From Hormiphora californensis (lineage: Eukaryota; Animalia; Ctenophora): a stretch of DNA of 64,000 bases. The translations under genes were made by a program, and so were the position numbers. The notes under the pieces are model-generated. The model worked only from the letters and a program-made list of their open reading frames with translations. It did no database searches and was not told the origin of the DNA. The stretch lies in the NCBI GenBank assembly GCA_020137815.1, contig CM035361.1, forward strand, positions 1-64,000. The letters are read 5' to 3'. Below, piece by piece: positions 3,138-49,222 of the stretch (its first letter is position 1; the number at the start of each line of letters is the position of its first letter).

Positions 3138-3139
3138 TT

Positions 3140-7882: not shown

Positions 7883-8236
7883 GAACATCATTTGGACCCA
7901 ATTATCTAAACCTTAACATCAATGATTGCGCATGAAACTTGGATTTTTAGGTAGAGAAATGTCTAAACTATCGTTTAGGCTTTAGTTTGGGCTCAAAAGT
8001 TAATCCTGAAGCTGGGAAATGAGTCTTTAGTGCAATGGGTCATATATGGCCTGTGGTCCTCAAAGGGTTAAACCAATAACGTGCCAGTGGTCAGAGTTTA
8101 TAGGTTATATATACCCTGCTTTAGTTGATTGTTTCAAGTATTACTAAGAGAGAGAGAGAACACTAATCAAAACACACAAAGAGAACTGAGAAACAGTCAA
8201 AAACACCTCACAATTGAGTGTATATTGTTTGGTAAT

Positions 8237-11042
8237 CAGGGTGTGAACTGCATGTCGTGTTTGCTAGTCGCGAGCGCGCTTGCGAGACAAGCAAACACGT
8301 CAAGGTTCATTAACAAGCATGCTGCTCAGTCATTTTAGATTTAATACACAATGTAAGGATACCATGTAATAGGTGAGACTCTTGCCGTCACCCTCGTTCA
8401 AGTCCCGTGAAAAACGGAGCAGTACACGCAAACTGATGCCCATTTTCCTCGCGTGACCCCGATTCAGCAGTTTGAGACACCAACTCTTTAGGGGGCCATA
8501 TCTCAGGAACCAGACAAGATAGGAAAAATCGCCGTCTAACGAGGCGTACAGTTTTTAATCTAGTTTACCACTGTACCGGCCGTTTCACTCTCCGACCTAA
8601 AACAAAAATCGCAACCCCACAAAACTTCAAAATAATGAAATTCGCATCTCGCATGTCGTGTTGCATGTCGTGTTGCATGTCGTGTCATGTTATTGACGCA
8701 CTCGCGTTCAACTCTCACACAGCAGCTGCAGAACATGGCGGGAAACATCGAGGAGTAGAGAGAGGGTCGGTGCCGAATCAAATATTTCTTGATCTTGATC
8801 TACTCCATCTCTCAGCTATCCTACCCCTCATCAACTCGATCTCTCAGCTACCCTACCCCTCATCTACTCCATCTTTCAGCTACCCTACCCCTCATCTACT
8901 CCATCTTTCAGCTACCCTACCCCTTATCTAGTCCATCTCTCAGCTACCCTACTCCTCATCTACTCCATCTCTCAGCTTCCCTATTAGGGAAGCATAAAGA
9001 TGGAAACGATTAGGGGTAGGGAATCCCTATCCATAATCGTTTCCATCTCTATGCTTCCCTAGCCCTCATCAACTCCATCTTTCAGCTACCCTACCCCTAA
9101 TCTAGTCCATCTCTCCGCTACCCTACTCCTCATCTACTGCATCTCTCAGCTACCCTACCTCCCATTTACTCCATCTCTCAGCTACCCTACCTCCCATTTA
9201 CTCCATCTCTCAGCTTCCCTACCTCCCATTTACTCCATCTCTCAGCTTCCCTACCTCCCATTTACTCCATCGCTTACCTTCCCTACCTCCCATTTACTCC
9301 ATCTCTCAGCTTCCCTACCTCCCATTTACTCCATCTCTCAGCTTACCTACCTCCCATTTACTCCATATCTCAGCTTCCCTACCTGCCATTTACTCCATCT
9401 CTCAGATACCCTACCTCCCATTTACTCCATCTCTCAGCTTACCTACCTCCCATTTACTCCATCTCTCAGCTTCCCTACCTCCCATTCACTCCATCTCTCA
9501 TTTATCCTAACATTCCTACCCCTGAGAGATGTAGTAAATGGGAGGTAGGGAAGCTGAGAGATGGAGTAAATGGGAGGTAGGGAAGCTGAGAGATGGAGTA
9601 AATGGGAGGTAGGGTAGCTGAGAGATGGAGTAAATGGGAGGTAGGGAAGCTGAGAGATGGAGTAAATGGGAGGTAGGGTAGCTGAGAGATGGAGTAAATG
9701 AGAGGTAGGGAAGCTGAGAAATGGAGTAAATGGGAGGTAGGGTAGCTGAGAGATGGAGTAAATGGAAGGTAAGGTAGCTGAGAGATGGAGTAAATGGGAG
9801 GTAGGGAAGCTGAGAGATGGAGTAAATGGGAGGTAGGGTAGCTGAGAGATGGAGTAAATGGGAGGTAGGGAAGCTGAGAGATGGAGTAAATGGGAGGTAG
9901 GGTAGCTGAGAGATGGAGTAAATGAGAGGTAGGGAAGCTGAGAAATGGAGTAAATGGGAGGTAAGGTAGCTGAGAGATGGAGTAAATGGGAGGTAGGGTA
10001 TCTGAGAGATGGAGTAAATGGCAGGTAGGGAAGCTGAGATATGGAGTAAATGGGAGGTAGGTAAGCTGAGAGATGGAGTAAATGGGAGGTAGGGAAGTTG
10101 AGAGATGTAGTAAATGGGAGGTAGGGTAGCTGAGAGATGGAGTAAATGGGAGGTAGGGTAGCTGAGAGATGGAGTAGATGAGGAGTAGGGTAGCGGAGAG
10201 ATGGACTAGATTAGGGGTAGGGTAGCTGAAAGATGGAGTTGATGAGGGCTAGGGAAGCATAGAGATGGGAACGATTATGGATAAGGATTCCCTAACCCTA
10301 ATCGTTTCCATCTCTATGCTTCCCTAATAGGGAAGCTGAGAGATGGAGTAGATGAGGAGTAGGGTAGCTGAGAGATGGACTAGATAAGGGGTAGGGTAGC
10401 TGAAAGATGGAGTAGATGAGGGGTAGGGTAGCCGAGAGATCGAGTTGATGAGGGGTAGGATAGCTGAGAGATGGAGTAGATCAAGATCAAGAAATATTTG
10501 ATTCGGCACCGACCCTCTCTCTACTCCTCGATGTTTCCCGCCATGTTCTGCAGCTGCTGTGTGAGAGTTGAACGCGAGCGCGTCAATAACATGACACGAC
10601 ATGCAACACGACATGCAACACGACATGCGAGATGCGAATTTCATTATTTTGAAGTTTTGTGGGGTTGCGATTTTTGTTTTAGGTCGGAGAGTGAAACGGC
10701 CGGTACAGTGGTAAACTAGATTAAAAACTGTACGCCTCGTTAGACGGCGATTTTTCCTATCTTGTCTGGTTCCTGAGATATGGCCCCCTAAAGAGTTGGT
10801 GTCTCAAACTGCTGAATCGGGGTCACGCGAGGAAAATGGGCATCAGTTTGCGTGTACTGCTCCGTTTTTCACGGGACTTGAACGAGGGTGACGGCAAGAG
10901 TCTCACCTATTACATGGTATCCTTACATTGTGTATTAAATCTAAAATGACTGAGCAGCATGCTTGTTAATGAACCTTGACGTGTTTGCTTGTCTCGCAAG
11001 CGCGCTCGCGACTAGCAAACACGACATGCAGTTCACACCCTG
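8237..11042. mobile_element. 2.8-kb near-perfect foldback with an inverted 32-bp minisatellite core
   Basis: CAGGGTGTGAAC...GTTCACACCCTG, flanked by GTAAT on both sides; unit tactccatctctcagcttccctacctcccatt. Confidence 0.9.
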
Positions 11043-15756: not shown

Positions 15757-15777
15757 GTGAGTTATAGCCCACACTAA

Positions 15778-16288
15778 GGGGAAACTCTAACTGAATGGCA
15801 TCCTATTAATGGTATCCCATCAACAGTAAAACTTTAACTGATAATGGACCACAGTGATGGTTCTTTCTCTGTATTCTCTCTGTAGGCAGTACATTGGGCA
15901 TGCCCGGGCATACACAGAGAGAATACAGAGAAAGAACCATCACTGTGGTCTAGTGTCTGACGGTGTATAAGGTCCAAATGAGGCACGGAGGTATTCTGAA
16001 TCAGCTTTTCAAGACGAATCCAACGCAACCGGAATTAGCTTTCTATCTTAACGGGAAGGTGTGGTTCACTCACACTCATTTTTAGTCATTTTTGCCGCGC
16101 GGCAAAAATCCCGATAAGATAGAAAGCGAATTCCGGTTGCGTTGGATTCGTCTTGAAAAGCTGATTCAGAAAAGCTCCGTGCCTCATTTGGACCTTATAC
16201 ACCGTCAGACAGTGTGGTCCATTATCAGTTAGAGTTTTACTGTTGATGGGATCCCATTAATGGGATGCCATTCAGTTAGAGTTTCCCC
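15778..16288. mobile_element. PIF/Harbinger-type MITE, GGGGAAACTCTAACTGAATG family, with a nested IR element
   Basis: TAA TSD; TIRs; nested element ~15954-16211 also seen at ~19695-20010. Confidence 0.85.
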
Positions 16289-16431
16289 TAAGGGCGCGCA
16301 CAGATTGCCCATGCTTGACCATGACCATATGTGATCAATATTTTGACCAAGTCGCACAGACTGACCAAATTTTTTAATTTGACCAAGCTTGGAGAGTAAA
16401 AACGGAAACTAATTCATAACATATCGAAAAC

Positions 16432-28948: not shown

Positions 28949-29139
28949 AAGGGACCCTTTTAGATAATAGGGTAATACAGATAATAATAATCAATAAGGT
29001 AATTCAGCGCTGACAAGTGCACAGCTCTCTCATGGGAACTCGAGAATTCTGCCGATAGACCGGATACGAGAGTTCACTGGTTCATATTCCGCCTGGTCAA
29101 CTAAACATCAACGAGGATCTTGAGAACGAGTTCAGCGCC

Positions 29140-30942
29140 GTGTGTGGTGACATGGCCAAGTGGGTCACCAGCACAATATCACTTGACAAGGATAAGCTAA
29201 CCTACAAGCAGCTGAATCATGAGCTGACGTCAGCCACCACCCAGAGGTTCGAATCTCTCAAACTCTGTTGTGTAGATATCAGCGTTACCTCAATACCTCC
29301 AAAAACAACATCCCATGCGCTCGAACCACCAGGCCAGAATTCCAACTATCCACTAACCATTTTACTAGTTGGTACTAAAAATCACGTTCTACAACTCCGC
29401 CCACACCAAGGAACAGACATTCCGCTCACCGAAATTAACGTGTGCCCAGGTAATGTTATAATAATCCCACGTGAAATAGCATCTAGCATTTCTCTCTACG
29501 TGAGATGCGACGCCATACCAGGCTCCGTAAGAGATAGCCGTCACTTCTGGATATCGCCAGTATTTTCATCTAGTGATGAAATAACTCCTCTGCCCACAGA
29601 ACTGGGCAAACCAAAAATCAATGATGTTAGCATTTACAGCTCAACAGATAATGACTCTAGCATCACCTCCAGGTCGGCCACGACACACGATTCCTTGCTT
29701 ATCGTTATCCCTACTAACAAAACCCCTGAAACCATCATCCCTGATGATCTACACAATCAAAATGATACCGGTCTTGATGACATCGCTACCACGGGACCTA
29801 GCAACATAGCTGTGACTCCCGACACGAAACACAACCTAAAAATAGAGGATAACTACTGTCTCAAGACACCAAGACTAGGTCACCCAAAGCAACCTAGTCC
29901 GGTTAAAACTCCCACAATTGATAGGTCCAGTATAGCGAACGAATTGCCCGCCCTCATGGATCCAGCGCACCAGGGTTGTCCCCTAGATGCAAACAATACC
30001 AATCTTGACAGGGCTACCAAATACCGAACCAGTCAATCCCAATCTCCGAAAGAAGAGCCCACCCAGCTACCTCACGGACCTTCGAAAGAGGACTCAATCA
30101 TCCAGAAGTCACCAGCTTCAACTAATCAGGAGCATACAACTTCCTTGTCCGTAGTCGATAAGACCACGAAGGAGAAGAACACAGCTAACAGACACCTCGA
30201 CCTACTCCTCAGGGCGGTTGACTCGTTTACCAATAGGCAAGCCAAGCCGCTAAGTAAAATCCTGAAAAAATGCAATATTAATCCCTCACCTAAGCTGGAT
30301 GACAATAAGGCGCTCCTCAAACAAGTTCTGACTGAAAAGTGCTCCACCGAGCCCTGTCCCCCCGCCTTGCCGACTGAGTTTCTTATCCTAAAACTAAATG
30401 ATCCTGCAGTGAAGAAAGAACTCAATAATATGAACATTTCACCGGCTAACAACAGCCACTCGAGGAAACAACAACTAATTGATCTAATGTTGGGTGAAAA
30501 CAAGATCAACATGGATGGATCCTTGTCTCCCGACATAACAAGCTCTCTTAACTCATCCACCTTGAAAAAGAGACAACGCAGACGGATGAAAAAGATCCTC
30601 TCCCAATCTACTCTAACCGAAGCCCCATCCAACACAAACCACCCCAACCCGGAAGAAACAGAAGACCCCTCAACGAGTACCAAGTCACCGCAAGTAGAAA
30701 AACCAACAAACACCATTGAGTCACCGACTACACCCTCAACAAACGAGGAAAACCACCAAACCTCCAAGCCCGCATCTTCACACATCCCAGCAAGTACTGG
30801 TAACATTCAGAAATGTACATGCTCGGAGCAGGCCTCGGAGCAGGCCTTGAGACCCCTGAAAGCCCTGGAAAATGGAATACTCAGTCTCAAAGAGGTTGTT
30901 GAGGAAAACAGTCAAAAGATCGACTCTCTAGTAGGTAAGACT
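29140..30942 (+). pseudogene. LINE ORF1-like coding region, cut by a foldback insertion
   Basis: ~600-codon open frame, low-complexity S/T/P linkers, basic patch KKRQRRRMKK, coiled-coil-like end. Confidence 0.65.
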
Positions 30943-33154
30943 GTGGTGGGAGAAATGGCTCACCCTAGAACAATTGCAAGTTAATAGCAAAAATGCATAA
31001 TAACCTGTAAATCACTTGTAATTCGAAGTTCAAACTATAAGTTTTGAAATAGTTTTGAATTTTTTTTAGAAAAATTTTAATTTTGAGATAGCTTTTGAAA
31101 TAGTTTTGAAATAGCTTTTGAAATAGTTTTGAAATAGCTTTTGAAATAGCTTTTGAAATAGCTTTTGAAATAGCTTTTGAAATAGCTTTTGAAATGGCTT
31201 TGGACGGGTGGTAGAAATGGGTCATGTGGCTCATCTGGCAGCTGCACGATCATTATGAACACAAGGACATTCATATAAAAGCGAAAACCAGTGTACCCGA
31301 CTAATTTTAATACGCTGAATCACGTGAGCACCTCTGGCAAGCGCTCAGATGTGAAGAAAGTGCCCTAATTGAGCATAATTGGGTGTAATTGACCGGACTT
31401 ACAACTTTTCTCCTGAAAACGCTAGAAGTTAATGTGAGGGCACTTTTCCGACTAACTTTGATACGCTGATTCACGTAAGCAACTTTTCCAAGCCCTAAGA
31501 GGCGGGGAAAGTGCCCTAATTGAGTCTGATTGAGTCTAATTGACCATAATTGCTCAATTAGGGCACTTTCTTCACCTCTGAGGGCTTGGAAAAGTTTTTT
31601 ACGTGATTCAGCATATCAAAGTTAGTCGGAAAAGTGCCCTCACATTAACTTCTAGCGTTTTCAGGAGAAAAGTTGTAAGTCCGGTCAATTACACCCAATT
31701 ATGCTCAATTAGGGCACTTTCTTCACATCTGAGCGCTTGCCAGAGTTGCTCACGTGATTCAGCGTATTAAAATTAGTCGGGTTCACTGGTTTTCGCTTTT
31801 ATATGAATGTCCTTGTGTTCATAATGATCGTGCAGCTGCCAGATGAGCCACATGAGCCGTTTCTACCACCCGTCCAAAGCTATTTCAAAAGCCATTTCAA
31901 AAGCTATTTCAAAAGCTATTTCAAAAGCTATTTCATATAAAAGCGAAAACCAGTGTACCCGACTAATTTTAATACGCTGAATCACGTGAGCAACTCTGGC
32001 AAGCGCTCAGATGTGAAGAAAGTGCCCTAATTGAGCAATTATGGTCAATTAGACCCAATCAGACTCAATTAGGGCAATTTCCCCGCCTCTTAGGGCTTTG
32101 AAAAGTTGCTTACGTGAATCAGCGTATCAAAGTTAGTCGGAAAAGTGCCCTCACATTAACTTCTAGCGTTTTCAGGAGAAAAGTTGTAAGTCCGGTCAAT
32201 TACACCCAATTATGCTCAATTAGGGCACTTTCTTCACATCTGAGCGCTTGCCAGAGTTGCTCACGTGATTCAGCGTATTAAAATTAGTCGGGTTCACTGG
32301 TTTTCGCTTTTATATGAATGTCCTTGTGTTCATAATGATCGTGCAGCTGCCAGATGAGCCACATGAGCCGTTTCTACCACCCGTCCAAAGCTATTTCAAA
32401 AGCCATTTCAAAAGCTATTTCAAAAGCTATTTCAAAAGCTATTTCATATAAAAGCGAAAACCAGTGTACCCGACTAATTTTAATACGCTGAATCACGTGA
32501 GCAACTCTGGCAAGCGCTCAGATGTGAAGAAAGTGCCCTAATTGAGCAATTATGGTCAATTAGACCCAATCAGACTCAATTAGGGCAATTTCCCCGCCTC
32601 TTAGGGCTTTGAAAAGTTGCTTACGTGAATCAGCGTATCAAAGTTAGTCGGAAAAGTGCCCTCACATTAACTTCTAGCGTTTTCAGGAGAAAAGTTGTAA
32701 GTCCGGTCAATTACACCCAATTATGCTCAATTAGGGCATTTTCTTCACATCTGAGCGCTTGCCAGAGGTGCTCACGTGATTCAGCGTATTAAAATTAGTC
32801 TGGTACACTGGTTTTCGCTTTTAAATGAATGTCCTTGTGTTCATAATGATCGTGCAGCTGCCAGATGAGCCACATGAGCCATTTCTACCACCCGTCCAAA
32901 GCCATTTCAAAAGCTATTTCAAAAGCTATTTCAAAAGCTATTTAGAAAGCTATTTCAAAAGCTATTTCAAAACTATTTCAAAAGCTATTTCAAAACTATT
33001 TCAAAAGCTATTTCAAAACTAAAATTTTTCTAAAAAAATTCAAAACTATTTCAAAACTAGTTTGAACTTCGAATTACAAGTGATTTACAGGTTATTTTGC
33101 ATTTTTGCTATTAACTTGCAATTGTTCTAGGGTGAGCCATTTCTCCCACCACAG
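30941..33154. mobile_element. Foldback with 11-bp sub-repeats (agcttttgaaat-like) and an internal 511-bp tandem duplication
   Basis: CTGTGGTGGGAGAAATGG...CCATTTCTCCCACCACAG; duplicated target TAAGA (up to GTAAGACT, boundary ambiguous). Confidence 0.85.
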
Positions 33155-33771
33155 TAAGACTGCCCAATCTACGGGTAAAGCTCGAAAAACCTCTTCAGGA
33201 AAAGAAGTGCAGTCCCAAAACCATAACCACAACTACAATCAGCTTATGGATATGCTCTCACAACTAATGGAAAAAGTGGATGCAGCGGATCTAAACCACC
33301 AAGTGACGCACATTCTTACTGAAGCGGCCAATACAGCGCTGGCGAGATCCAAATCACTTCCCGGGAAATCCAAATGGTTTGACGATGACTGCTGGCTTCT
33401 CAGGACGAAGCTCCGGAACGCCTCCCGGCGCCTTTCCAGACATCCCAGTAACCCTCAACTTCGTACCGAGTTTTACAATGCCAAGAGGGAGTATAGACGA
33501 ACAATACGGTCAAAAAAGTATAGTTTTCTATTCGAACTCAATGCCAAAGTGGAGAACTGTAAAACCATTGACTGGACGGCCTTCAAGAGACTCAAAAGAG
33601 AAAATAGCCAAACCGATCAATTCGATCTACTGGATCTACATAATTTCTTTGTCTTCTTCAAGAACTTGTACTCAAGTAAATGTCTCAAGCAATCTGAAGA
33701 TCACCCGGACAAGTTGATCTCTAGCAATGCACCAACACCAGCTGAACTGGAGATCCTCAACAGATCTATTA

Positions 33772-34024
33772 GGGGAAACTCTAACTGAATGCCCGCGCAG
33801 TAATGGCGTCCCATCACTGGTAAAAATCTAACTGATAATGGGAGTCATCACTCTGTGCGCGTCAGGATTTGCCACAAATTTTGCCAAAAAAAGGCTTTTA
33901 CGTAGGGCGCGATGACAAACACACGAGCATGGTCGCGCGTTCTTCCATCATTCCTTCCATTCAATTAGAGTTTTACCAGTGATGGGACGCCATTACTGCG
34001 CGGGCATTCAGTTAGAGTTTCCCC
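33772..34024. mobile_element. Harbinger-type MITE (GGGGAAACTC family)
   Basis: TIRs; flanks TTA/CTA; removal restores NRSITQEEL. Confidence 0.9.
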
Positions 34025-34258
34025 CTACTCAAGAGGAACTCAATGAAGCTATCTCTTCTCTGAAATCTAACAAAAGTGCCTCCCTTGATCTAATAAGGAA
34101 CGAAATGCTTAAAAATCTATCTAGTGATATGAACGCTCTAACTCTTAAGCATCTAAATGGCTGTCTCAGAACAGGTTGCTACCCATGGAATGCCTCAGTT
34201 ACAACCGTTCTACACAAAAAAGGTGACAAAGAGGATCCAGACAATTACCGTGCCATAA

Positions 34259-34512
34259 GGGGAAACTCTAACTGAATGGACGCGCAGTAATGGCAGCCCA
34301 TCAACTGTAAAAATCTAACTGATAATGGGAGCCATCACTCTGGGCGCGCCAGGATTTGCCACATTCTGCTCGTAAAAAAGGCCTTTACGTAGCGCGCGAT
34401 GACAAACACACGGACATTGTCGCGCGTTCTGTCCATCATTCCTTCCATCCAGTTAGATTTTTACGGTTGATGGGACGCCAGTACTGCGCGTCCATTCAAT
34501 TAGAGTTTCCCC
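34259..34512. mobile_element. Harbinger-type MITE (GGGGAAACTC family)
   Basis: TAA TSD; removal restores NYRAITLGS. Confidence 0.9.
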
Positions 34513-36009
34513 TAACACTCGGTAGCTGTCTTGGTAAGCTATTCTCATCATTATTGCTTAGTCGCCTCATATCATTCAGGGCGAAAGTTTGTCCAGATAC
34601 TAGCAACCAGCTAGGCTTTTGCAAAGGAGGACAAACTTCGGATCATCTCCTAGTTCTGAAGACCATATTGGACAAATATCTTAAGAAAAAGAAGGTCAAG
34701 GTGTACTCATGTTTTATCGACATGCGAAAAGCCTTTGACCGCGTCTGCAGGCAAGGCCTCCTAAAAAAGCTAGCGGACATGGGGGTCGGCGGTAACTTCT
34801 TTTCCTGTCACCAGAATATGTACGAGGGATCAACTACGTGCATAAGGCTGGCGGACAAACTGTCTGAGTCGTTCTGCGTCCTAATCGGCACCGAACAGGG
34901 GCACCCCTTATCCCCCGAACTATTTAAAATGTTTGTTCACGAGCTATCCCATCTTCTCAACGAAACACCAGGAACTTTCCCCCAACTTGACAACAAGCCA
35001 ACCAATAACCTGATGTGGGCGGACGACATTGTGGTCCTGGCTCTCAACAAGACTTCTTTACAGTCTCTTCTAGACACCCTGGGTCACTACACAAGGACGT
35101 GGGAACTTGAAGTTAATATTGACAAAACCCAGGTGTTAGTTTTTAACAAACAGGGCAGACTTCTACCGGAAAGCTATGGATTCAAGCTAAATAACAAATC
35201 CCTTCAACCAACTAAGCACTATTGCTATCTGGGCCTGATCTTCTCCGCAACAGGTTCCCTCAAACCAGCAATTGAAAACTTATCAACTAAAGGGAAACGT
35301 GCATGTCTAGTTCTCAAACGTACAATAAACTCACAGGCTCTCTCGGGCTGGAGTCTGATGAAGCTATTCGACCACCTAATTGCTCCCATCCTAACTTACG
35401 GAATACCGGTGTGGCTACCCACCACTCAAGCGGCAAGAGCGAGAACCAGAGGAGATCATCTAGACCATAAAGGATACTTCAAGAGACTATCTACCGATCA
35501 TTTTGAACGAGTACACCTTGGATTTCTCAAATGGGTACTGGGTGTGCACAGCAAAACAACCAACACGGCAGTGTACGGAGAAACGGGAAGAGCACCCCTA
35601 TCAATCTCGGTCCATCAGCAGTGCTCGAAATATTTCATTAGAGCCCTGTCAAAAGCATCAGATGACCAAGACTCATCTCTACTCGCCCTCGCCGTCCGTG
35701 AACAACGCACTCTCAACCTGGAGTGGTTTGACTTTTGGGACTCCACCCTAAGGATAGGCGGCAGAGACCAACTTGAACATCAACATGTTCACCACTGGGA
35801 CGCACTGCGCAGCACCCAATCCAAACTCAGTTTCTTCAACACGATTAAACAAGAGTATGGATACTCCTAATACCTGGATCTACGAAGACAAGACAGAACA
35901 CACGTCGCCAAACTGAGACTTAGTGCTCACGACCTCCTTATCGAAACAGGTCGTTACACGGGTGACCTGCGCACATGCCGTTACTGTGTTGACAGATCAA
36001 ACGCCGATA

Positions 36010-36299
36010 GGGGAAACTCTAACTGAATGGCATCCCATTAATGGGATCCCATCAACAGTAAAACTCTAACTGATAATGGACCACAGTGATGGTTCTTTCT
36101 CTGTATTCTCTCTGTAGGCAGTACATCTATGTACTGCCTACAGAGAGAATACAGAGAAAGAACTATAGGGCATGCCCGGGCACGGGCGTGCACACAGAGA
36201 GAATACAGAGAAAGAACCATCACTGTGGTCCATTATCAGTTAGAGTTTCACTGTTGATGGGATCCCATTAATGGGATGCCATTCAGTTAGAGTTTCCCC
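36010..36299. mobile_element. Harbinger-type MITE (GGGGAAACTC family)
   Basis: TIRs; flanks ATA/TTA; removal restores the reading frame. Confidence 0.9.
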
Positions 36300-36621
36300 T
36301 TACTCTCAACCAGCTACCTATGGCGGACCCTATCTTTGAGGATGAAACACACGCTCTATTTGACTGTCCCGAGTACGAGGAACTGAGAAAGAACACGCCA
36401 GAACTTCTCCAAATATCACTCAAATCCAAAAGCACATCACACATCTTCAATCCCGAACTGATCACACCACTCAACAAATTTCTGGCCGCATGTCGCACAC
36501 ATAGATCTGAAAGTCCTGGGCCCGGCTAACTGCCTCAGGGCGAAGAACCGGTTCCACTGATAAATCTTCATGTCCGGTGAAGAGTTGCAGCCCACGTTTA
36601 TCTAACTCTACCTGCATGCTT

Positions 36622-38420: not shown

Positions 38421-38881
38421 GTCTAGACACTCACACACACACAAGCGAACTATTGGGGCTAATTATAAAGTAGAGAGATAACGAATGCCAATGTCTTTCT
38501 TGTTTCTCTCTTGTGTTAATCTATACACACTCCCTATCCCTAAATTTCTTCTTCCTTAATCAACAGTGTGTTACACAGTACACACATACACACATAAGAA
38601 AGGATTTCACACCTTTTTTGAATGAATTCTTGTGTGTAATAAACTACACTTTTGGAGCGTGTGATATGAGATTTATCACCTCGGATGCCCGAATAGTAGA
38701 GTCGATAACTACATCGACCTCTCCCAATTGTTCCAGTTTTTGTCACATCTGTTTGGAGCCTCGACACGACCTCTAAACAGGTGTTACTTTTTCACAAACT
38801 GTTTTCATCTTGGTGTAATCAGCATTTGAAATGTTGCTGATCATAACAAAAACCTAACTATTTTTTTTCAACTTGGGGTAA

Positions 38882-39225
38882 TGGTGTAGTTATGCCTCCG
38901 ACATCATCGGGATACGCGTGTTGGTGTGTGTTTTATCTGTGCGTGTGTGTGTTAGTTGTCATAGAGACGGACCCTGTGCTGCGCGAGATTGTAATGAAAG
39001 CACAGCATTCAGCGCGCGGCGCATCACACGAGGTATGCGCCGCGCAGTTCTCACGATATTTTCTGAAATGGTCCGAGTTTTTGAAACCCGAGAAATTTGT
39101 CAGTTCCTTTTTTACCACTTTACATTCACGAAACCAAGATCCGTGTTTTAAACTTCGTCTCAATCTAACTGGTGTACCCGGCTGCGGCAGCGCCCCCCAT
39201 TACCCCAAGTACCATCCTTACACCA
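38882..39225 (+). repeat. 5' LTR
   Basis: Direct repeat of 47893-48235. Confidence 0.93.
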
Positions 39226-39227
39226 AC

Positions 39228-39240
39228 TGGTGGCAGAGGA
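39228..39240 (+). promoter_or_regulatory. Primer-binding site, probably for initiator tRNA-Met
   Basis: TGGTGGCAGAGGA 2 nt after the LTR; one G:U difference from the complement of the animal tRNAi-Met 3' end (TGGTAGCAGAGGA). Confidence 0.7.
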
Positions 39241-39253
39241 AACATCAGCCAAT

Positions 39254-40736
39254 ATGTACACCAGATCCATGCGAAGGCAGGGTATCCAAGAGCCATTGCC
39301 GAGGATTGAAAGGAGTTTGTCCTATGATTTAGCAATCAGACGACCGATATCCATCAGCTCCCGACTTTCTACTATCAGCATAAGATCAATCACAGATGAG
39401 AATCTTGTACCACGACCGGCTCCAGAGATTAGCCCCCAAGCGAGGAATGCCTCTATCGAGAGATGGCGCGAACAGAGTCAACCGTCCATCTACAGTCGTG
39501 ATCGTGTGGCACATCCCAGAGAAGTGTATCAGCAACGTCGACCAAGTAGCCCGGAACAGAGTCAACTGTCCATCAACAGTCGTGATCGTGTGACACATCC
39601 CAGAAGAGTGCGTCAGCAACCTCGACCAAGCAGTCCAGAACAGAGTCAAGCGTCCATCTACAGTCGTGATCGTGTGGCACATCCCAGAGGAGTGCGTCGT
39701 CGACATCGATCAAGCAGCCCGGAGTCCTCCACAGAGAGCGAAAGATCCTCCCGTTACTCTAAGAAGAAGCACAGGACCAGTAAGCCTAAGTACGAGGGAG
39801 GAAAGAAAAAGTTTGACATCTTTCTGCGCCGTTTTAGACGTTACGTGAACCAGAAAAAGAGAAGAAACGATCTACATGAAGTTCTCCTGGATTGCATACT
39901 CTGCGACGACAAGTTCAGAATGATTGAGAGACTCCAATTCTCCGAGGAGGAAAAGAAAGACGTCGATAAGCTGATTGAGTATGTCCGATTCGCCACCCAG
40001 ACTGAGAGGCTCGCCCCCGAGGCATGTAGGGTAGAACTTACAACTATCCGACAGGGGGAATATGAGGAATACAACGATTTCCTCGAAAGAATCAGAGAAC
40101 TCGCCGAAGAGGCTTACTCGGAAGCGGATCCTATAGTCAGGCAAGATAGGATGAATTACCAGATGCTAAACTCTCTGCAAGATGGCCTATTCGACAGAGG
40201 AGTGGCCAAGACCATCTCGAAGTGGCGTGACGAAAACCCCAGAATCGACTTTGAAAGTGTAGCAGCAGCGGCACACAAGAAGCTAGTAAAGAACAAGATA
40301 TTCTTGCCTGAGAGAAAGAATCAGAAGTCTCTAAACGTCTACGCTATAGGAACGGCTGAGAGCAGTTCTAAACCCAGTACTGGTGCAAGTGACATTCCCA
40401 ACTGCACATTTTGTGGGAAGAGAGGCCACACTATCAACGAGTGCTTCCGGAAACAAACCTGCCAGCTATGTAACGAGAAGGGTCATACTGGACCCCGCTG
40501 CAGAAAGTTTACGATTCAGAGAAGGCACCAGATACCCAACGGAGCAGGGCACAATACCAGAAATAGGCAGCAAGCAGAATCAGAAGAAGGACTTAACCTG
40601 TTGGAACTGCAATGAAGAGGGCCACGTCAAGAGATATTGTCCCAAGCCGATCAGTGACCAGACACCACAAGGGAAGCAGTTAAACGGCCAAGCGGTCGAG
40701 GCAGGAAGGCAAGCTCAGTTCCTCGGCCGCAAGTAG
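39254..40736 (+). CDS. gag: Gag with three CCHC knuckles; the third is in the +1 frame
   Basis: PKYEGG, RQGEYE..DFLERI, CTFCGKRGHTINEC, CQLCNEKGHTGPRC; CWNCNEEGHVKRYC in ORF 40383-40736. Confidence 0.85.
40679..40730 (+). promoter_or_regulatory. Probable -1 ribosomal frameshift signal (gag-pol)
   Basis: G TTA AAC, 6-nt spacer, stem gcggtcgagg/cctcggccgc; pol frame is -1 and open from 40658. Confidence 0.7.
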
Positions 40737-43700
40737 ATGCAGAGATCATGCCGCCGGGGGAGCGTGAAGGGGAGAAGAAGGTACGGGTGGCCGACCTCTC
40801 CATCCCGCCGGCACAGAAATCCTGGTATTCTCCTAACCAGGAACACGTGATACAGAATGATGACACTCAGACCACACCGATCTCAGGACAAGACCCTACT
40901 TGCCAGAAGGTGACCGTCCAGGATGACAAGTTGGTAAAGTGTACAGAACCAGCATCAAGACCGGATGAAACGGTTCCTAGTTCTGATCAAGAAAAGGAGA
41001 CACTGACGAAAAAGGCCACCCAGAAAAAGAAACGAGGCAAGAAAGTGAAGACACTCACCGCTGATGAAATCAAAAGATCGCAACAAGTTATTGTAGAGGG
41101 AGAGATTACACACTATAATGCGGCACCCTTCAGAGCCCGTTGTTTTCTAGACACAGGTTCACAGATTAACCTCATAAACTGGACCACAGTGTGTAAAATG
41201 GGACTCACTTCGAACGTCAACGAGACCATGCAGAATCTTCGTGATTTCGGAGGGAACTCCATACCGTGTAAGGGGACCATTATGGTGATGTTGAACATAG
41301 GAGGCCTATCCAAATGGCACTCTTTTGCCGTCTGTGAGGGATTGGACACAGACCTGTTGTTAGGAGATCCATTCTTCACAGGACAAGTTGTGATCGATTA
41401 TATAAACGGTGAGCTGAGAATCGAAGGAGCAGATCCAGTTCCGTTTCAACCAAGACCAACCAGTACAGACAAGGTGCACCAGATAAAGTACACAGAAACA
41501 ACATGTATACCACCACATACGATGGTATTTGTGTCGGGGTCCCTAGCAGAAACCCCTACAGGGTCTATTGGACTAATCTCTCCTGACCTAACCAGAGGAC
41601 AAAACGATGTCTATGTTGCAGAAGCTATCGCCGAGGCAAGTGATGAGAAAGTTGTTTTGAAAGTCCTCAACATGACAGGAAACGAAGTTGAGTTGAAGCA
41701 AGGAAGTAGAGCGGCAAAGTTTAGTCCCGTTCCTGATTACGATCCTCATGCCGGAATCAAGTGGGAAGACAGATGCGCCATTGGTTCTGAAGTACCCGAG
41801 AAGGAGAGATGGACCAAAGAAGAGCTCTTTGAGCGTTTGAGTGTAGATGTTGCCATAAGGAACCTGACCGATCTCCAAGCACACGAGTTGAAAGACATTT
41901 TGTGGGAGCATCGACACTGCTTTAGCTATGACGATTACGATTTGGGTTCCTGCACAATGTACACAGCTAAGATCAGGCTAAAAGAGGGTGCAGAGCCGCA
42001 GTGGACACCACCGTTCCCATGTCCATATAAACTGGAGGACGAAATGCAAAGGAATATTGATGAGATGGTACGTACAGGAGTAGTCGAAGTACTGCCAGAG
42101 CGATCTGACTGGAACTCTCCGACATTTCTCGTCAAAAAGAAGACTCCTCCTGGGCAGCCACAACGTTATCGAATCGTAGCGGATTTGAGGAACGTCAACA
42201 AGGTCTCTCTTCCATCCAACTTCCCACTGGCACATCTAGACCACGTACTAGACAAGATTGGAAAGGACACAATCTTTTCCTCTTTCGACTTGTCACGCGG
42301 CTATTGGCAGCTACCATACGATGAAGCTTCAAAGCAGATAACAGCATTTCTCTACAAAAACACCCAATATGCATACGCCAAAACTGTGATGGGACATCGA
42401 TCAAGTGGACCGTCATTTTGTGACATGATGTCCAGGCTCCTTGGATCGTTGCCGATAGAGCAAGTAGTCCAGTTTGTTGATGATCTACTTCTATCATCGT
42501 CGACTGTCAAAGATCATCTTGACCGACTACAAAGGCTCTTGTCTAGGCTGAAGAGTGCAAATTTGAAGGTTTCGCCAGATAAGTCTCAACTTCTACGACA
42601 AGCAGTGGACTTCGTCGGTGTTCGAGTCAGCGGAGGAGGTATCCAGATCACTGAAAGCAGAGTAGCCGATCTCCTCGCTCTACGAGAACCCCGATCCAGA
42701 AAGGAAATTCAGCAAGTGATGGGCGCTATGAACTATGTTCGCAAGTGGATACCTAACTACAGCGCCATTAGCAAACCCATACACGCAGCCTTGCGTGGAG
42801 GTAAAGATAAGAAGTTTCACTGGACTGAGAAATGCAAGGAGGCGTATGAGGAACTGAAACGACTAATTGCCAAAACCACTCAACTGGCAATACCGGATCC
42901 ATCTGACCCTTACAACTCCTATCAAGTTACGATTGACGCATCGATCCACGGTCTGGGTGCGTCTTTGTCCCAAGAACTTGACACTGCTGATGGAGGACGA
43001 GAACGAAGAATAGTCGCCTACTACAGCAAGGCAGTTCCAGAGTACAAGAAACCTAGGGGTCAAACAAGACTTGAGTTTGAAGCCATGTGTGCAGCGCTTG
43101 AACATTGGAAGATATACCTGTACAACACGAAGGAATTTGTTCTCATCACGGACTGCTTATCGCTAGTAAAAGCAGAAGGAACGCTCTTCACACATCCGGA
43201 CGCAGCTGTACTAAACAAGATCCAGAAACTTGCGGAGTTCAACTTTATCTTACGCCATGTGAATGGAGTAGATAACGAAGTTTGTGATTGGCTTTCAAGA
43301 TTCCCCTCCCCACCGATCTTCAGTGAGGCTCAAACCCAAACACCAGTGGAGCCAGATCTTCTGAAGATGCAGACGACAGATCCAGATCTTCCGAAGATGC
43401 AGACTGCAGCTCCAGATCTTCAAGAGATGCAGACGACAGATCCGGATCCTCCAAAGGTACAGAATAAAGATCCAGACCCCTCAAAGGTTCAGACGATCAC
43501 ATCAGTCCCTCTGGAGACTCAACAACACCAGGCTGTCATTGTCGATTTCTTACCGTGCAAAGAATCAAAGGGATTAGAGAGATTCCTGCAGCAGAAAGGG
43601 TTCAGTGTAAGAACCATAGTCGGCAGTACACAAGAAGGACCTAGTTGTGGATACATCGCAGCGAAGGTCGTGGCCAAGATGATCTCCACCCCAGATTGCT

Positions 43701-46273
43701 TCGATGAACGGGTGCAGTTTGATGATTGTACCTACAGTGGAGATCCAGAAGATGACATGGTGGTTACAGGTAACGCCGCCTTGGGCAAACCTAATGAACA
43801 TCATCAGGAACCATCTTTCCTTACTGCCGAGGAGTGTCTACAGTTGATATCGGTATACTTGAAGAAGTACCATTCCATAGACATCCCTGTCAACAGATTG
43901 TGCTCCCAGGCAAACGTCGAAGATGCCATCAGCTTATCCACCTTCAGGTTCAAGACCCTTGAACACGTCAAGAACCGAGATGGAAAGAAGTTCTTCATCG
44001 TCAATAGCTCAGATGACGGTGGCATCCATTGGTTTGCAGTGGCCTTAGGACAAATCATGCAGCAGAAAACAGAACCGTCAGAGGAACCGATCCAGGTAGC
44101 AGAACTAACAGATAACCAGAGTCGCATTTCTAGCGAGGTTATCGATGGAGTTACATCACCTGAAATGGAACCAAAGACTGCAGAATCGTACCAACCTCGT
44201 ACAGTTGGATATGACCCCACAAACTCCAGTGACACAGACTCAGAGACATCTTCGTCTGTCCAGGAAGACCGCAGCTCTAGCGATCTGGACGATAAAGACA
44301 GCAGTATGTCCCTGAGCAGCACGTCAGATACAGCATATTCGTCATGTGAAGAGTCAAAAGCCGTAGAGTACATCTTTGTAGTGAAGAGCACTCAGTATCC
44401 GGAAACAAGCTTCGTGACAGAGTTCGCTGATATCGAGAATGGAGAAGACATCTCATCACGTTCCGGTGAAAAGAGATTGGGAAGTTCAGACAAAGTCAAG
44501 GATGCGCATCCGGATGATAATATTGTTAGTCTGCTGAAGTCAGACTGTCTGAACAGAGGAGTATCAGACTCAACTGAAGACCACATTCACCCTTGTATTT
44601 GTGGAGAAGATGCTGTCCCTGAAGAAATTCTGGAAGTAGCGGCTATACATAACCTCGGGATTGATCACCCTGCGGGTAAGAGCTGGCCAGAATGGGAAGA
44701 GGCACAAGAGTCAGATGATATCCTGAAGATAGTAAGAACGTGGGTCAAAAAAGGTTCGAGAGGTGTGGTACAAGCTAACCGAGCTCCTCCCGATCTAGAT
44801 TCGTTGTGGAGACAGTTTCCATTGCTGCGAATAGAAGATGGTGTCCTGCAGAGACGCTGGAAAGACCTAAAGACAGAGGACATTTTGTGGCCAATTGTCA
44901 TTCCATGGAAGTACAGAGAAGAACTCATAACGAGAGCACATGAGGTCACAACAGGCCACGGAGGGATCCAAACAACCCTCAACAGCCTGCGACGACTATT
45001 CTATTGGCCGAGAATGGAATCACATGTCAAATCCACGGTACAAGCTTGTCTAGTTTGTGCAGCAGTCAATCAACCACGAAAGAAATACCAGGCTGACATG
45101 AGCGAATTTATTTGCCATGAGTTCAATGCAGTGTTGGTGATTGATCACATTGAACCGGAGAAGAAAGGAGCAACCAAGAACGGATTCTCTTCAATTCTAA
45201 CCATGACAGACAGTTTCAGTAATTACCTTGTTGCTGTCCCTACCGTTACTCAAACAAGCCTGGAAAACCGACAACTGATCGAGAAACACTGGATCAATCG
45301 ATTCGGATACCCACGTGAAATAGTGTGTGATCAACATCAGGGTTTCAAAGGTGCTATGTTCAAAGAATACTTTGAGGTGTACGCTGGTATCAAAGTAATT
45401 GCAGGTCAGCCCTATCTGGCTCGTAGCACTGGCCGAGCTGAATCCAGTAACAAACGAGTCGATGATATTCTACGGAAGATATTGTTTGTGGAGTACCCGC
45501 AAGACTGGGACGAGTTTCTGAGCGATGCAGTATTTGTCCTTAACAATTTGAAAAATAGAAGGACAGGTTACACTCCATTCCGACTTGTCCACGGGTTTGA
45601 GGCAAATATCCCAGAAACTATCCGGATGAAACAACTTGCCAGGACCAGAGTCCCGCAAGGAGCAAACATCCATGCCAAAGTACACGAGATGGCCAAGCAG
45701 AGGAAGGAGCTGATTTGGAAAGTACGCCAGAATGCTAACAGAGATTTCGGGTACGCCAGAAAACAGCACAACAAGAGACTCAACGACCCTGAGTTATCGA
45801 TAGGAGACCAGGTGATGATTCGAATTCCGTGTCCAGAGCACAAGTTCTCTCCTAAATACATTGGTCCAATCCAAATCAAAGAAGTTATCAGCCCCTACCT
45901 GTACCGTATCCATCACAACGGGAAAGACAAGGTCGTTGCTGTGTCCAAACTCAAATTGTTCAGACGCAACAGTGCTTCTCTTGATCCAGAACAAGACCCA
46001 GAGTCAAACAGTGCCGATGAATCACCTCCAGACACCATGTCAGTAGAACCCAGTGACGTGGATGAACCTGAACTGAACCAATCTGAGCAAGAAGAAGTGA
46101 GATCTGTTGAAGATAACCAAGAAGAAGTGAGATCCGTTGAAGATGAAGAACTGCAGCCCCAGATACCACCACCACAGCAAACAGATGACCGAGAGGAAAG
46201 ACTGGAACCCGAGTGGAGGGGACGATTACGCTCCACAGTAACCGGAGTGAAACGATTTGCAGCTCAGTTATAA
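40682..46273 (+). CDS. pol: Pol polyprotein: aspartic protease, dUTPase-like region, RT, RNase H, inserted cysteine-protease-like domain, integrase
   Basis: FLDTGS; WNSPTFLV, FDLSRGYWQ, FVDD; IDAS/LEF/ITDC/CDWLSR; H-H-C-C plus D-D-E; uninterrupted ORF (1841 aa from ATG 40748). Confidence 0.95.
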   Translation, partial: KRPSGRGRKASSVPRPQVDAEIMPPGEREGEKKVRVADLSIPPAQKSWYSPNQEHVIQNDDTQTTPISGQDPTCQKVTVQDDKLVKCTEPASRPDETVPSSDQEKETLTKKATQKKKRGKKVKTLTADEIKRSQQVIVEGEITHYNAAPFRARCFLDTGSQINLINWTTVCKMGLTSNVNETMQNLRDFGGNSIPCKGTIMVMLNIGGLSKWHSFAVCEGLDTDLLLGDPFFTGQVVIDYINGELRIEGADPVPFQPRPTSTDKVHQIKYTETTCIPPHTMVFVSGSLAETPTGSIGLISPDLTRGQNDVYVAEAIAEASDEKVVLKVLNMTGNEVELKQGSRAAKFSPVPDYDPHAGIKWEDRCAIGSEVPEKERWTKEELFERLSVDVAIRNLTDLQAHELKDILWEHRHCFSYDDYDLGSCTMYTAKIRLKEGAEPQWTPPFPCPYKLEDEMQRNIDEMVRTGVVEVLPERSDWNSPTFLVKKKTPPGQPQRYRIVADLRNVNKVSLPSNFPLAHLDHVLDKIGKDTIFSSFDLSRGYWQLPYDEASKQITAFLYKNTQYAYAKTVMGHRSSGPSFCDMMSRLLGSLPIEQVVQFVDDLLLSSSTVKDHLDRLQRLLSRLKSANLKVSPDKSQLLRQAVDFVGVRVSGGGIQITESRVADLLALREPRSRKEIQQVMGAMNYVRKWIPNYSAISKPIHAALRGGKDKKFHWTEKCKEAYEELKRLIAKTTQLAIPDPSDPYNSYQVTIDASIHGLGASLSQELDTADGGRERRIVAYYSKAVPEYKKPRGQTRLEFEAMCAALEHWKIYLYNTKEFVLITDCLSLVKAEGTLFTHPDAAVLNKIQKLAEFNFILRHVNGVDNEVCDWLSRFPSPPIFSEAQTQTPVEPDLLKMQTTDPDLPKMQTAAPDLQEMQTTDPDPPKVQNKDPDPSKVQTITSVPLETQQHQAVIVDFLPCKESKGLERFLQQKGFSVRTIVGSTQEGPSCGYIAAKVVAKMISTPDCFDERVQFDDCTYSGDPEDDMVVTGNAALGKPNEHHQEPSFLTAEECLQLISVYLKKYHSIDIPVNRLCSQANVEDAISLSTFRFKTLEHVKNRDGKKFFIVNSSDDGGIHWFAVALGQIMQQKTEPSEEPIQVAELTDNQSRISSEVIDGVTSPEMEPKTAESYQPRTVGYDPTNSSDTDSETSSSVQEDRSSSDLDDKDSSMSLSSTSDTAYSSCEESKAVEYIFVVKSTQYPETSFVTEFADIENGEDISSRSGEKRLGSSDKVKDAHPDDNIVSLLKSDCLNRGVSDSTEDHIHPCICGEDAVPEEILEVAAIHNLGIDHPAGKSWPEWEEAQESDDILKIVRTWVKKGSRGVVQANRAPPDLDSLWRQFPLLRIEDGVLQRRWKDLKTEDILWPIVIPWKYREELITRAHEVTTGHGGIQTTLNSLRRLFYWPRMESHVKSTVQACLVCAAVNQPRKKYQADMSEFICHEFNAVLVIDHIEPEKKGATKNGFSSILTMTDSFSNYLVAVPTVTQTSLENRQLIEKHWINRFGYPREIVCDQHQGFKGAMFKEYFEVYAGIKVIAGQPYLARSTGRAESSNKRVDDILRKILFVEYPQDWDEFLSDAVFVLNNLKNRRTGYTPFRLVHGFEANIPETIRMKQLARTRVPQGANIHAKVHEMAKQRKELIWKVRQNANRDFGYARKQHNKRLNDPELSIGDQVMIRIPCPEHKFSPKYIGPIQIKEVISPYLYRIHHNGKDKVVAVSKLKLFRRNSASLDPEQDPESNSADESPPDTMSVEPSDVDEPELNQSEQEEVRSVEDNQEEVRSVEDEELQPQIPPPQQTDDREERLEPEWRGRLRSTVTGVKRFAAQL

Positions 46274-46570
46274 CCGTTACCACTGACCTTGATCAAGCCC
46301 TATCTGATGTTATGTATAACATTTGCTGGCCAGCTGGATTTGTCTTGATATAGTCACCTGGCACCTGTTTTGGGGTCCTGAATTCCCCAGTACTGCCTGT
46401 CAACTAGCGGCGAATAACTTGCTGTCATTCCTGATTTCCCCTCTATTCCTCGTCCCAACACCACTGCTACTAGGGCTGAATATCTTCAACTCTCCATTGA
46501 GGACCATTTGCTCCAGAAAGCTAAGGTCTGAGAGAGACTCTCACGGCCTACCCTCTACATCCCCACTAAT

Positions 46571-47041
46571 AGTTGAGTGTACTCAACACCCCGTTAAAAT
46601 CTTGGATTTAAACTCATGTTTAAACTCCTGGATTTAAATTCCACAATCCCCAACCAGTTGAGAGTTCTCAACAACACACCACACTTCGCTTTGAATACAT
46701 AATTCACTAACAGTTGAGCTTTCTCAACACCCCATTTTGATCCTGAAATTCACCCCGCTAAAATCTTGGATTTCAGATCCCTGATTTAAATTCTAAAGTT
46801 CACTAGTTGAGCCTTCTCAACATCTCATTTTGATCCTGAAATTCACCCTGCAAAAATCCTGGATTTATAATCCTTGGTTTAAATTCTAAAATTCATCAGT
46901 TGAGTTTCCTCAACACCACATCGACACCTCCTCAACACCACATTTGGATCCGGTAATTCTCCCAAGTTCACCCATGTTCATTACGTTAAAATCCTCTTGG
47001 ATTTAAATATTTATACACACCCAAGTTGAGTATTCTCAACA
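46571..47041 (+). repeat. Array of six AGTTGAG-N4-CTCAACA hairpins in the Gypsy 3' UTR
   Basis: Stems start at 46572, 46657, 46713, 46806, 46899 and 47025. Confidence 0.9.
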
Positions 47042-47892
47042 CAACAACAACAACAGCACTATTGGCCTGTATCTGCTGATATATGCTTGGATGATCCAGA
47101 TACCGTTACTAGGCCGACACCTGATGAGGAGGTTAAATGTGCTACCCAACAATATGCCATAATACCAATCCGCGATACCGGTAAACAGTTCCTGAGAGCA
47201 GAGGTACTATTTTGGCTTCCTTGAGAGACCTGGTGAGGTGAAGAGGAGCAGTGATTTATTGTCGGAGATCAGTGGTGGACAGGGAGCAGTTGGTACTGGA
47301 GTGCGATGCCCCTGAGATACTAGCTCGAGGAGATGGAACATACTGGTATTTGGCCCAGTTGATTTGACATGTGTTTTAATACAGATTAACACAGACTCTA
47401 TGCGTGTGTATATCCACGTAGTGTAAACATTTTAATGACCCAGGTTTTTATCAATCCACGGGTATGTTCGAGTCCGGTTTTTAATATTTTAATCCCAGTA
47501 TTTTATAGTAATTTATTTTTACGGCTCATGGTGTGGTTTATCCTATTTCACACGTGTGTTTTTAACCATTTTTATATGTTTTTATCCCAGGAATTTTGTA
47601 GGAATTGAAGAATCACCCTGTATACAGTATTATTGCCTAATATCACATGTGTATCTTTTCATTTTCATTCATTTCCATCTCATACACCCCTGCGTAGACG
47701 TCATTTCCCTCAGTCACATTACGTGTCACCCTCCCACGTGTGTTTTTATACCCTTTATATCCTAGCCCGAGTTCTTCCTGAGTGTGTTCGTACAGTGATG
47801 GTGTCGTTATGGTTCACCCCCCCTGGGGCAGTGGCGGCCCCCCGATCATTCCATTGGAATTGGTCGGGGAGCCGAAATTGTACTTGGGTGGA

Positions 47893-48235
47893 TGGTGTAG
47901 TTATGCCTCCGACATCATCGGGATACGCGTGTTGGTGTGTGTTTTATCTGTGCGTGTGTGTGTTAGTTGTCATAGAGACGGACCCTGTGCTGCGCGAGAT
48001 TGTAATGAAAGCACAGCATTCAGCGCGCGGCGCATCACACGAGGTATGCGCCGCGCAGTTCTCACGATATTTTCTGAAATGGTCCGAGTTTTTGAAACCC
48101 GAGAAATTTGTCAGTTCCTTTTTTACCACTTTACATTCACGAAACCAAGATCCGTGTTTTAAACTTCGTCTCAATCTAACTGGTGTACCCGGCTGCGGCA
48201 GCGCCCCCATTACCCCACATACCATCCTTACACCA
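47893..48235 (+). repeat. 3' LTR
   Basis: Direct repeat of 38882-39225, followed by the GTAA TSD. Confidence 0.93.
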
Positions 48236-48618
48236 GTAAAACCATGGGTGTCAAAAGTTAGCTCTAGGTCCCCTGAGTAACCATCCGGAGACTCTAAGAG
48301 ATATTTCAAGCCGTTCTCCTGTAATCATTAATCCCGGTAGAGCACATATTTGAGTATGGACGTACGTGCAATTGCCTACAACCTCAACTTTAATGTATAA
48401 CGTTAATGTGCGTCTCTCTCTTTTCTCCCCCTTGAGAAAGAGTTATCTCGCGCGGCGCAACCGCACGTGCGGTTTTTCCAGAGAGAGTGAGAGACATACA
48501 ATAACATGTAAACAGCCTGCCAGCGCTCACGTACGTCCGCATTGTATTTTTTTCTCCACCGGGATTAATGATTACGGGAGAACGGCTTGAAATATCTCTT
48601 AGAGTCTCCGGATGGTTA

Positions 48619-48870
48619 GGGGAAACTCTAACTGAATGGCATCCCATTAATGGCGTCCCATCACGTCCCATCACTAATTGAATGGAAGGAATGATGGAAG
48701 AACGCGCGACCATGCTCGTGTGTTTGTCATCGCGCCCTACGTAAAAGCCTTTTTTTGGCAAAATTTGTGGCAAATCCTGACGCGCACAGAGTGATGACTC
48801 CCATTATCAGTTAGATTTTTACCAGTGATGGGACGCCATTACTGCGCGGGCATTCAGTTAGAGTTTCCCC
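48619..48870. mobile_element. Harbinger-type MITE (GGGGAAACTC family)
   Basis: TTA TSD; empty site visible in the opposite arm (~48271-48286). Confidence 0.9.
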
Positions 48871-49222
48871 TTACTCAGGGGACCTAGAGCTAACTTTTGA
48901 CACCCATGGTTTTTATTATTTACCCCAAGTTGAAAAAAAATAGTTAGGTTTTTGTTATGATCAGCAACATTTCAAATGCTGATTACACCAAGATGAAAAC
49001 AGTTTGTGAAAAAGTAACATCTGTTTAGAGGTCGTGTCGAGGCTCCAAACAGATGTGACAAAAACTGGAACAATTGTGAGAGGTCGATGTAGTTATCGAC
49101 TCTACTAGAAGTCTAGACGGTCCCAGAGAGATGTGGGAAGTAGCGATCCCACTATATCTTGCCAGTGCCTCAGCCCCATACCCCGCCAGTGATTAGCTAA
49201 ATTGAGCCTGCTCAATGTGTGT

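Follow-up and report, generated by a model that had tools for sequence, protein, structure and literature searches.

A Ty3/Gypsy retrotransposon of Hormiphora californensis whose U5 tip is complementary to its insertion junction

Introduction

The choice of target by LTR retrotransposons is usually attributed to proteins that tether the integrase to chromatin or to transcription factors, as described, e.g., for Ty1 and Ty3 at Pol III genes. A guided choice is known from the prokaryotic IS200/IS605 elements, which use an HUH transposase. It has also been described for the IS110/IS1111 elements, which employ a DEDD transposase (10.1101/2024.04.26.591405).

For retroelements, insertion at PPT- or PBS-like sites via single-stranded cDNA ends is reported for integrase-less Tf1 and HIV-1, with truncation of the other end being proposed (PMC11042837). 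Pairing between the ends of the element RNA is described for Ty3, with its bipartite primer-binding site (PBS), and for Ty1, with CYC5 and CYC3 (PMC11381356). In normal reverse transcription the plus-strand strong-stop DNA is transferred to the 5' end, and the two LTRs come out identical (PMC6894440). In a full-text search, with most subscription journals outside its coverage, we found no U5-guided LTR insertion made by an integrase.

Here we describe an intact Ty3/Gypsy element that is inserted into a high-copy foldback of the ctenophore Hormiphora californensis and that carries, near the end of its 5' LTR, the exact complement of its left insertion junction. The window, i.e. the whole stretch of DNA analysed, comprises 64,000 nt (NCBI GenBank assembly GCA_020137815.1, contig CM035361.1, positions 1 to 64,000 of the forward strand) and belongs to a scan of ~250,000 windows. 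The features of the element and its target are listed in Table 1.

Table 1. Features of the retrotransposon and of its insertion site (positions in the window)
Feature	Position	Strand	Remarks
Host foldback, left arm (MITE-like), received the insertion	38694..38881		98.9% complementary to 48920-49107 over 188 nt
Target flank complementary to the U5 patch	38871..38881	+	7 nt outside the cut plus the 4-nt duplication; present at empty sites
Target site duplication, left copy	38878..38881	+	4 bp; empty-site contigs agree
5' LTR	38882..39225	+	344 nt, TG...CA ends, 7-bp terminal inverted repeats
gag-like ORF, stop to stop	39152..40615	+	two Cys/His knuckles near the C-terminus, by eye
U5 patch	39197..39212	+	14 contiguous pairs with the left junction; 13 Watson-Crick pairs and 1 G-U pair in 16 positions with the PPT/U3 border
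Two-letter LTR difference	39208..39209	+	AG here; CA at 48218-48219
PBS, likely tRNA-Leu	39228..39239	+	two bases past the 5' LTR
pol ORF	40658..46273	+	1871 aa, uninterrupted; protease motif, RT, RNase H, ~190-aa insert, integrase
3' non-coding region	46274..47879	+	long; internal degenerate repeats; without env ORF
Pre-PPT and weak PPT	47880..47892	+	purines at only 8 of 13 positions
3' LTR	47893..48235	+	343 nt; U5 keeps 11 contiguous pairs with the left junction
Target site duplication, right copy	48236..48239	+	4 bp
Remaining host foldback	48240..49107		nested smaller foldback and right arm; target twin at 48920-48930

Results

Anatomy and classification of the element

The element is a Ty3/Gypsy (Metaviridae) retrotransposon. 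It shares with this group direct LTRs with TG...CA ends, a tRNA PBS, the order RT-RNase H-integrase and a 4-bp target site duplication, and the HHCC and DDE motifs of its integrase are intact as judged by eye. On Pol, Pfam recognised RVT_1 (493-657), RNase H (722-839), Integrase_H2C2 (1416-1472) and rve (1492-1586), the latter falling under the curated cut-off; the protease was identified by eye from its motif only. The best PDB match of Pol is the Ty3 Gag-Pol (E 3.8e-67). Among 66 homologues six Mnemiopsis leidyi proteins are the named close relatives (54-57% identity), and in a quick tree Pol nests in a 25-row clade that includes them, with a support of 100, which by itself makes a ctenophore host likely. 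The PBS is likely of the tRNA-Leu type, with one mismatch in 12 nt in a comparison by eye with published PBS rows labelled Leu (PMC13524379, supplement). A 4-bp duplication has been reported for animal Helenus elements, which are linked to Gypsy there (PMC10886601).

Troyka, which is defined by a 3-bp duplication and CG...CG termini (PMC12440569), was ruled out by the duplication and termini found here. An errantivirus-like, env-carrying Gypsy element was likewise ruled out, as no env ORF was found after pol (no ORF of at least 120 aa in 46274-47608). Neither the gag-like ORF nor a 223-aa frame running into the 3' LTR has a Pfam match.

The element differs from Ty3/Gypsy in its weak PPT, in a U5 that is an inverted copy of both the PPT/U3 border and the target junction, and in the insert of Pol between RNase H and integrase, which is absent from the 66 relatives. 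In this insert (43523-44122, residues about 956-1155) a Cys motif is followed by a His-Trp motif, resembling by eye a papain- or OTU-type protease. The Atlas search gave a weak lead for the insert (score 0.79, OTU in 19% of the members, with all Atlas matches below 0.9), and its structure model is unusable (pLDDT 39). The comparison of homologues, the Atlas search and this model identified no guide-handling domain in Pol.

The gag region contains 84-nt tandem repeats (39470-39723), the degenerate repeats of the 3' non-coding region lie at 46564-47052, and the LTR end together with the PBS (39214-39241) is predicted to form a hairpin covering the PBS. Elsewhere in the window there are a large foldback with 715-nt arms around inverted arrays of a 32-nt repeat (8237-11042), a second RT ORF (34326-35870; RVT_1, 514 aa), a DDE_Tnp_1_7 transposase fragment (3054-3746) and a 641-aa open frame with no Pfam match (29059-30984).

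The target site predates the insertion

For comparison with other copies we used read contigs from four runs, comprising two samples (S1 and S2) from two studies, one of which may be the source of the window; X7-X11, with shares of 0-0.23, were excluded. Statements on other copies are drawn from contig ends under the assumption of 31-letter words, so that the bases given for these copies are deduced ones.

An earlier note on this DNA, made from the sequence alone, had regarded the 11-nt flank as pre-existing target because the other arm of the foldback has it too. The twin motif is indeed present in that arm, and empty-site contigs, which pass from 38881 directly into the right flank, were found in all four runs (4-5 contigs in each), demonstrating that the flank was there before the element. 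The same contigs fix the duplication as four bases.

Relative to the element body, the depth is about 500-700-fold in the mid-arm of the foldback and 40-370-fold in the bin containing the target site. Beside the target motif the right arm (48913-48930) has 8 extra bases as compared with the empty left site, and the empty-site contigs correspond to the short form. In one S2 contig, gag (at 39325) is fused to the beginning of this host foldback, which thus appears to have inserted into a retrotransposon copy in turn, the nesting being mutual. Short foldbacks that form a second family and have their termini in common occur at 48278-48871, 33769-34025, 34256-34516, 15775-16291, 36007-36305 and other positions, and one of its copies is nested inside the target foldback.

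U5 is complementary to the left junction, and the LTRs differ only there

The 5' U5 contains, at 39197-39210, the exact reverse complement of the junction (38871-38884; 14 of 14 positions), just as the earlier note had claimed. Complementarity of an element sequence to the target plus the element end, as in nucleic-acid-guided systems, is therefore observed here for one insertion. The right junction has no match comparable to the left one, at which the best anchored match is located. A candidate second guide at the right junction (9 nt, 39168-39176) was rejected, as it comprises only 2 flank bases and is mostly terminal repeat.

The observation that the LTRs differ only at the patch also proved correct: 341 of 344 columns are identical, leaving three differences. 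The AG version of the 5' LTR improves the pairing with the junction from 11 to 14 contiguous pairs, and both versions share 8 nt of the flank complement. The third difference is one C in the run 39193-39198 (six C's in the 5' LTR, five in the 3' LTR), a homopolymer that merely overlaps the edge of the patch. Two difference events within 17 nt have a P of about 0.09. The three clustered changes had been taken to suggest a templated event, which may hold for AG, as it fits the flank as inverted template, but not for the extra C; a single inverted template thus does not account for all clustered differences.

U5 also matches the PPT/U3 border of the element

As a competing explanation it had been proposed that U5 is an RNA 5'-3' pairing element and that the flank match is a coincidence. 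The underlying 9-nt complement (39204-39212 with 47880-47888) is real, no other 9-mer in 39260-47900 being complementary to the U5 tip, and it is part of a stronger match: the patch pairs with the PPT/U3 border in the junction register at 14 of 16 positions. In other words, the tip of U5 repeats the element's own border in inverted orientation. For the U5 version of the 3' LTR 12 of 16 positions pair with the border, and the predicted RNA duplex of patch and border amounts to -24.2 kcal/mol for the AG version vs -16.5 kcal/mol. Within the element the pre-PPT is the second-best partner of the patch (top 0.2% of windows), a pol site near 41513 pairing slightly better. In the distant relative L006, one weak case, no U5/PPT complement was found by eye.

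The border thus offers a second template for the two-letter change, but the internal pairing leaves the likeness of the target to the border unexplained. The flank is identical to the pre-PPT at 8 of 11 positions in register, 7 of them contiguous (P about 1.2e-3), and the 7 PPT-like nt stop exactly where the duplication starts. Target flank, PPT border and U5 complement all share one register relative to the terminal TGG. The inner 8 nt of the flank find their match in both LTRs and its outer 7 nt in the pre-PPT, so that all 11 nt of the site corresponded to element sequence prior to any repair. Copying from the flank can therefore account for AG but not for the match. Flank-templated repair therefore leaves the coincidence in place, a consequence that goes beyond the account of the earlier note, in which quasi-palindrome repair was one of two readings.

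Such a repair after insertion, in which the 11-bp inverted repeat of junction and U5 allowed a replication template switch over a 312-nt spacer and the flank was copied into the 5' LTR, is unlikely in our judgement. Template switching is described to perfect inverted repeats and to make clustered changes (PMC5453318), and the multi-nucleotide change seen here resembles such an event. Moreover, the 14-bp stem of junction and U5 closes the LTR in both the MFE and the centroid single-strand folds of the 5' end and dominates them (z -2.1 vs -0.1 at the 3' end, which folds no better than shuffles), and AG is apparently restricted to 5' LTRs in X1 (see below). However, the long spacer and the existence of two candidate templates differ from the described quasi-palindrome or short template switches, neither the extra C nor the choice of the site is accounted for, the identity of the outer flank with the pre-PPT is left unexplained, and the coincidence as a whole remains as large. 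A fold-back of U5 onto the PPT primer would span the same 312 nt as one onto the flank, and a switch within it would alter only the 5' LTR. The primer template provides a weaker initial anchor and three bases for realignment after the change, whereas the flank provides 11 pairs and one base. Mixing of two family alleles may be a third route to the difference between the LTRs.

The match as a possible chance event

Anchored on the terminal TGG, the 11-nt flank match has an analytic P of 5.0e-6 per element. Among 109,116 mock sites in the window it was reached four times, all four being the insertion site or its twin arm, so that no unrelated mock site attains it; the 8-nt match common to both LTR versions was found at 38 of the 109,116 mock sites (3.5e-4). 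Owing to the many copies of the foldback, the figure of 5.0e-6 may be about twice as high by our own estimate. The ~250,000 windows scanned may contain 1e4 or more LTR elements, which is a guess, and with this number an event of 1e-5 may be met once by chance. We thus judge the match to be far beyond chance for a single element, but not clearly so across the scan.

A coincidence is in our judgement nearly as likely as the pairing-assisted site choice favoured below. The pairing of U5 and PPT would then be internal to the element, serving RNA end-to-end pairing or primer handling, and the integrase would have chanced on a similar, common foldback site; a fold-back switch or mixed family alleles would, as part of the same explanation, have produced the LTR difference. 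The pairing of U5 with the PPT border does exist independently of the target, the target site has hundreds of times the depth of the element, and the scan is large. In S1 two or more versions of U5 appear to be followed by a PBS, so that alleles to be mixed are available; recombination of co-packaged RNAs is described (PMC6894440), and asymmetric LTRs, mostly due to deletions, are reported from HIV proviruses (PMC9278108). On the other hand, an event of 5e-6 has to fall on an element with a rare in-register repeat of its PPT and with its sole LTR differences at the patch, and identical LTRs are the normal outcome even after recombination (PMC6894440).

Other copies of the element in read contigs

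The 5' LTR version of the patch is found in contigs: record 7 of X1 (62 nt, 39178-39239, depth 104) reaches the PBS with 0 differences, although the X1 sample may itself be the source of the window. An assembly artefact, by which the LTR differences or the junction would be consensus errors or a chimera of copies, is in our view very improbable. The extra C does lie in a homopolymer, and the 3' version as well as the junction itself were not found letter by letter in the contigs. Yet the AG version occurs in them together with six C's, the empty sites confirm flank and duplication, and the match of 11 pairs holds with either LTR.

In X1 and X3 a PBS-side contig starts at 39210, directly past the variant site, suggesting that at least two U5 versions precede a PBS in S1. 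The hidden version has a depth of about 55 vs 104 in X1, where the sums of the bins fit six LTR units of about 52, two with AG and four without; both AG units would lead into a PBS, and AG appears to be confined to 5' LTRs in X1. An X3 contig ends at 39202, suggesting a version that differs at 39203, so that the forks in X1 and X3 disagree. Altogether, contig ends cluster at the patch (39203, 39208 and 39210). A PBS-linked contig of X6 has 3 other letters plus 7 unplaced ones, probably all within the last 30 LTR bases, as compared with 9 changes in 279 nt elsewhere; this excess at the patch is weak (Poisson P 0.017-0.074). Finally, the X5 contig (S2) that carries the full LTR depth, record 19, has its first letter precisely at LTR base 1. 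As the flank in the window and the PPT both end in A, this start suggests that some copy has another -1 base and thus another flank. The contig ends therefore seem to count against a fixed target as well as against an assembly error, and a patch changing along with the flank would be in accord with them, though they do not show it.

These findings also bear on targeting by proteins, i.e. a preference of the integrase or of a host factor for the foldback site, with U5 being an old captured copy of a junction. The 8 nt of flank complement kept in both LTRs, the great abundance of the target and the unexplained Pol insert between RNase H and integrase are in line with it, whereas the other flank suggested by X5 record 19 and the apparently variable patch argue against it, and we consider it improbable.

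Among metagenome contigs we found 15 related loci, with L002 (57% identical) and L001 (44%) being the closest and the other 13, including L006, being 25-33% identical. Neither L002 nor L001 has an LTR pair or an identifiable flank; L002 has long non-coding ends (1-300 and 6790-8113) in its 8.1-kb contig. The viral and prokaryotic collections yielded no relatives of the element, and the LTR-start motif had no match in viral contigs. The U5-end motif gave 120 prokaryotic matches, which were dismissed as chance since none exceeds 23 nt against the LTR.

Discussion

The weights that we give to the different readings are judgements and were not computed. Based on one insertion, we tentatively and by a narrow margin favour a landing site that was selected with the help of base pairing to the U5 patch, the insertion being made by a normal integrase. 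The plus-strand strong-stop DNA, which begins with the PPT primer and becomes the 5' LTR, would likely fold back, bringing U5 into pairing with the primer together with the first three bases of the LTR, and a brief template switch in this fold-back could write the two-letter change into the 5' LTR only. A single-stranded U5 patch, provided by spare strong-stop DNA or by RNA, would then adjoin the end of the LTR, where it would base-pair across the cut with the target's top strand, whereupon the integrase would complete an ordinary concerted insertion.

The low probability of the match per element supports this pairing, as do the single register of the three sequences, the better fit of the AG version to flank and border alike, the high rank of the pre-PPT among the partners of the patch and the depth sums of X1, and since variable patches between copies are to be expected from it, the clustering of contig ends and the differences in X6 fit as well. 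A precedent for pairing between a cDNA end and the target is integrase-less Tf1, which inserts at sites resembling its PPT and PBS (PMC11042837). Against base pairing stand the single insertion, with one patch-flank pair read, and the size of the scan. Moreover, finished cDNA is double-stranded at U5, so that a guide would need a second, hypothetical molecule. The lack of a comparable match at the right flank, the weakness of the X6 excess, the disagreement of X1 and X3 on the fork, the pol site near 41513 as a slightly better partner than the pre-PPT and the absence of an identified guide-handling domain likewise count against it. The earlier note had offered target choice guided by base pairing for a whole type of sites; we retain it as the leading reading for this one insertion, but a strict site preference of the family is doubtful in view of the other -1 base deduced from X5 record 19.

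The comparison with the known systems yields likenesses and differences. In its upstream flank, which is similar to the PPT region in register, the insertion is like those that Tf1 and HIV-1 make without integrase. That route, however, leads to truncated elements without integrase action, whereas the present element has two complete ends, intact integrase motifs and a clean 4-bp duplication, and its flank fits the complement of U5 (11 of 11) better than the PPT. A Tf1-type insertion was thus rejected, as neither an inactive integrase nor a truncated end is found. RNA pairing of the Ty1/Ty3 type could explain the U5/PPT repeat but not the target: the pairing partner here is the PPT/U3 border, and the patch additionally matches the target. 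With IS110/IS1111 and IS200/IS605 the element shares a sequence near its end that is complementary to the target plus a few end bases. Those are prokaryotic DNA elements with other transposases and proven covariation, in contrast to the DDE integrase and the one example described here.

The U5 tip might even be the self-encoded guide of a ctenophore Gypsy lineage: the patch would pair with the target over the cut, the integrase would insert at that place, and the 5' patch would be rewritten while the 3' LTR keeps the version of the parent, with the progeny inheriting the update, although we regard this extension as rather unlikely. If true, it would mean that integration by a retroviral-type integrase can be programmed through base pairing and that a record of the target sites is inherited. 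If base pairing between U5 and the target favoured the insertion, this would parallel the guided insertion sequences of prokaryotes. Even if the match is a coincidence, the locus points to a route by which LTRs may differ at birth, which matters for dating insertions by LTR divergence.
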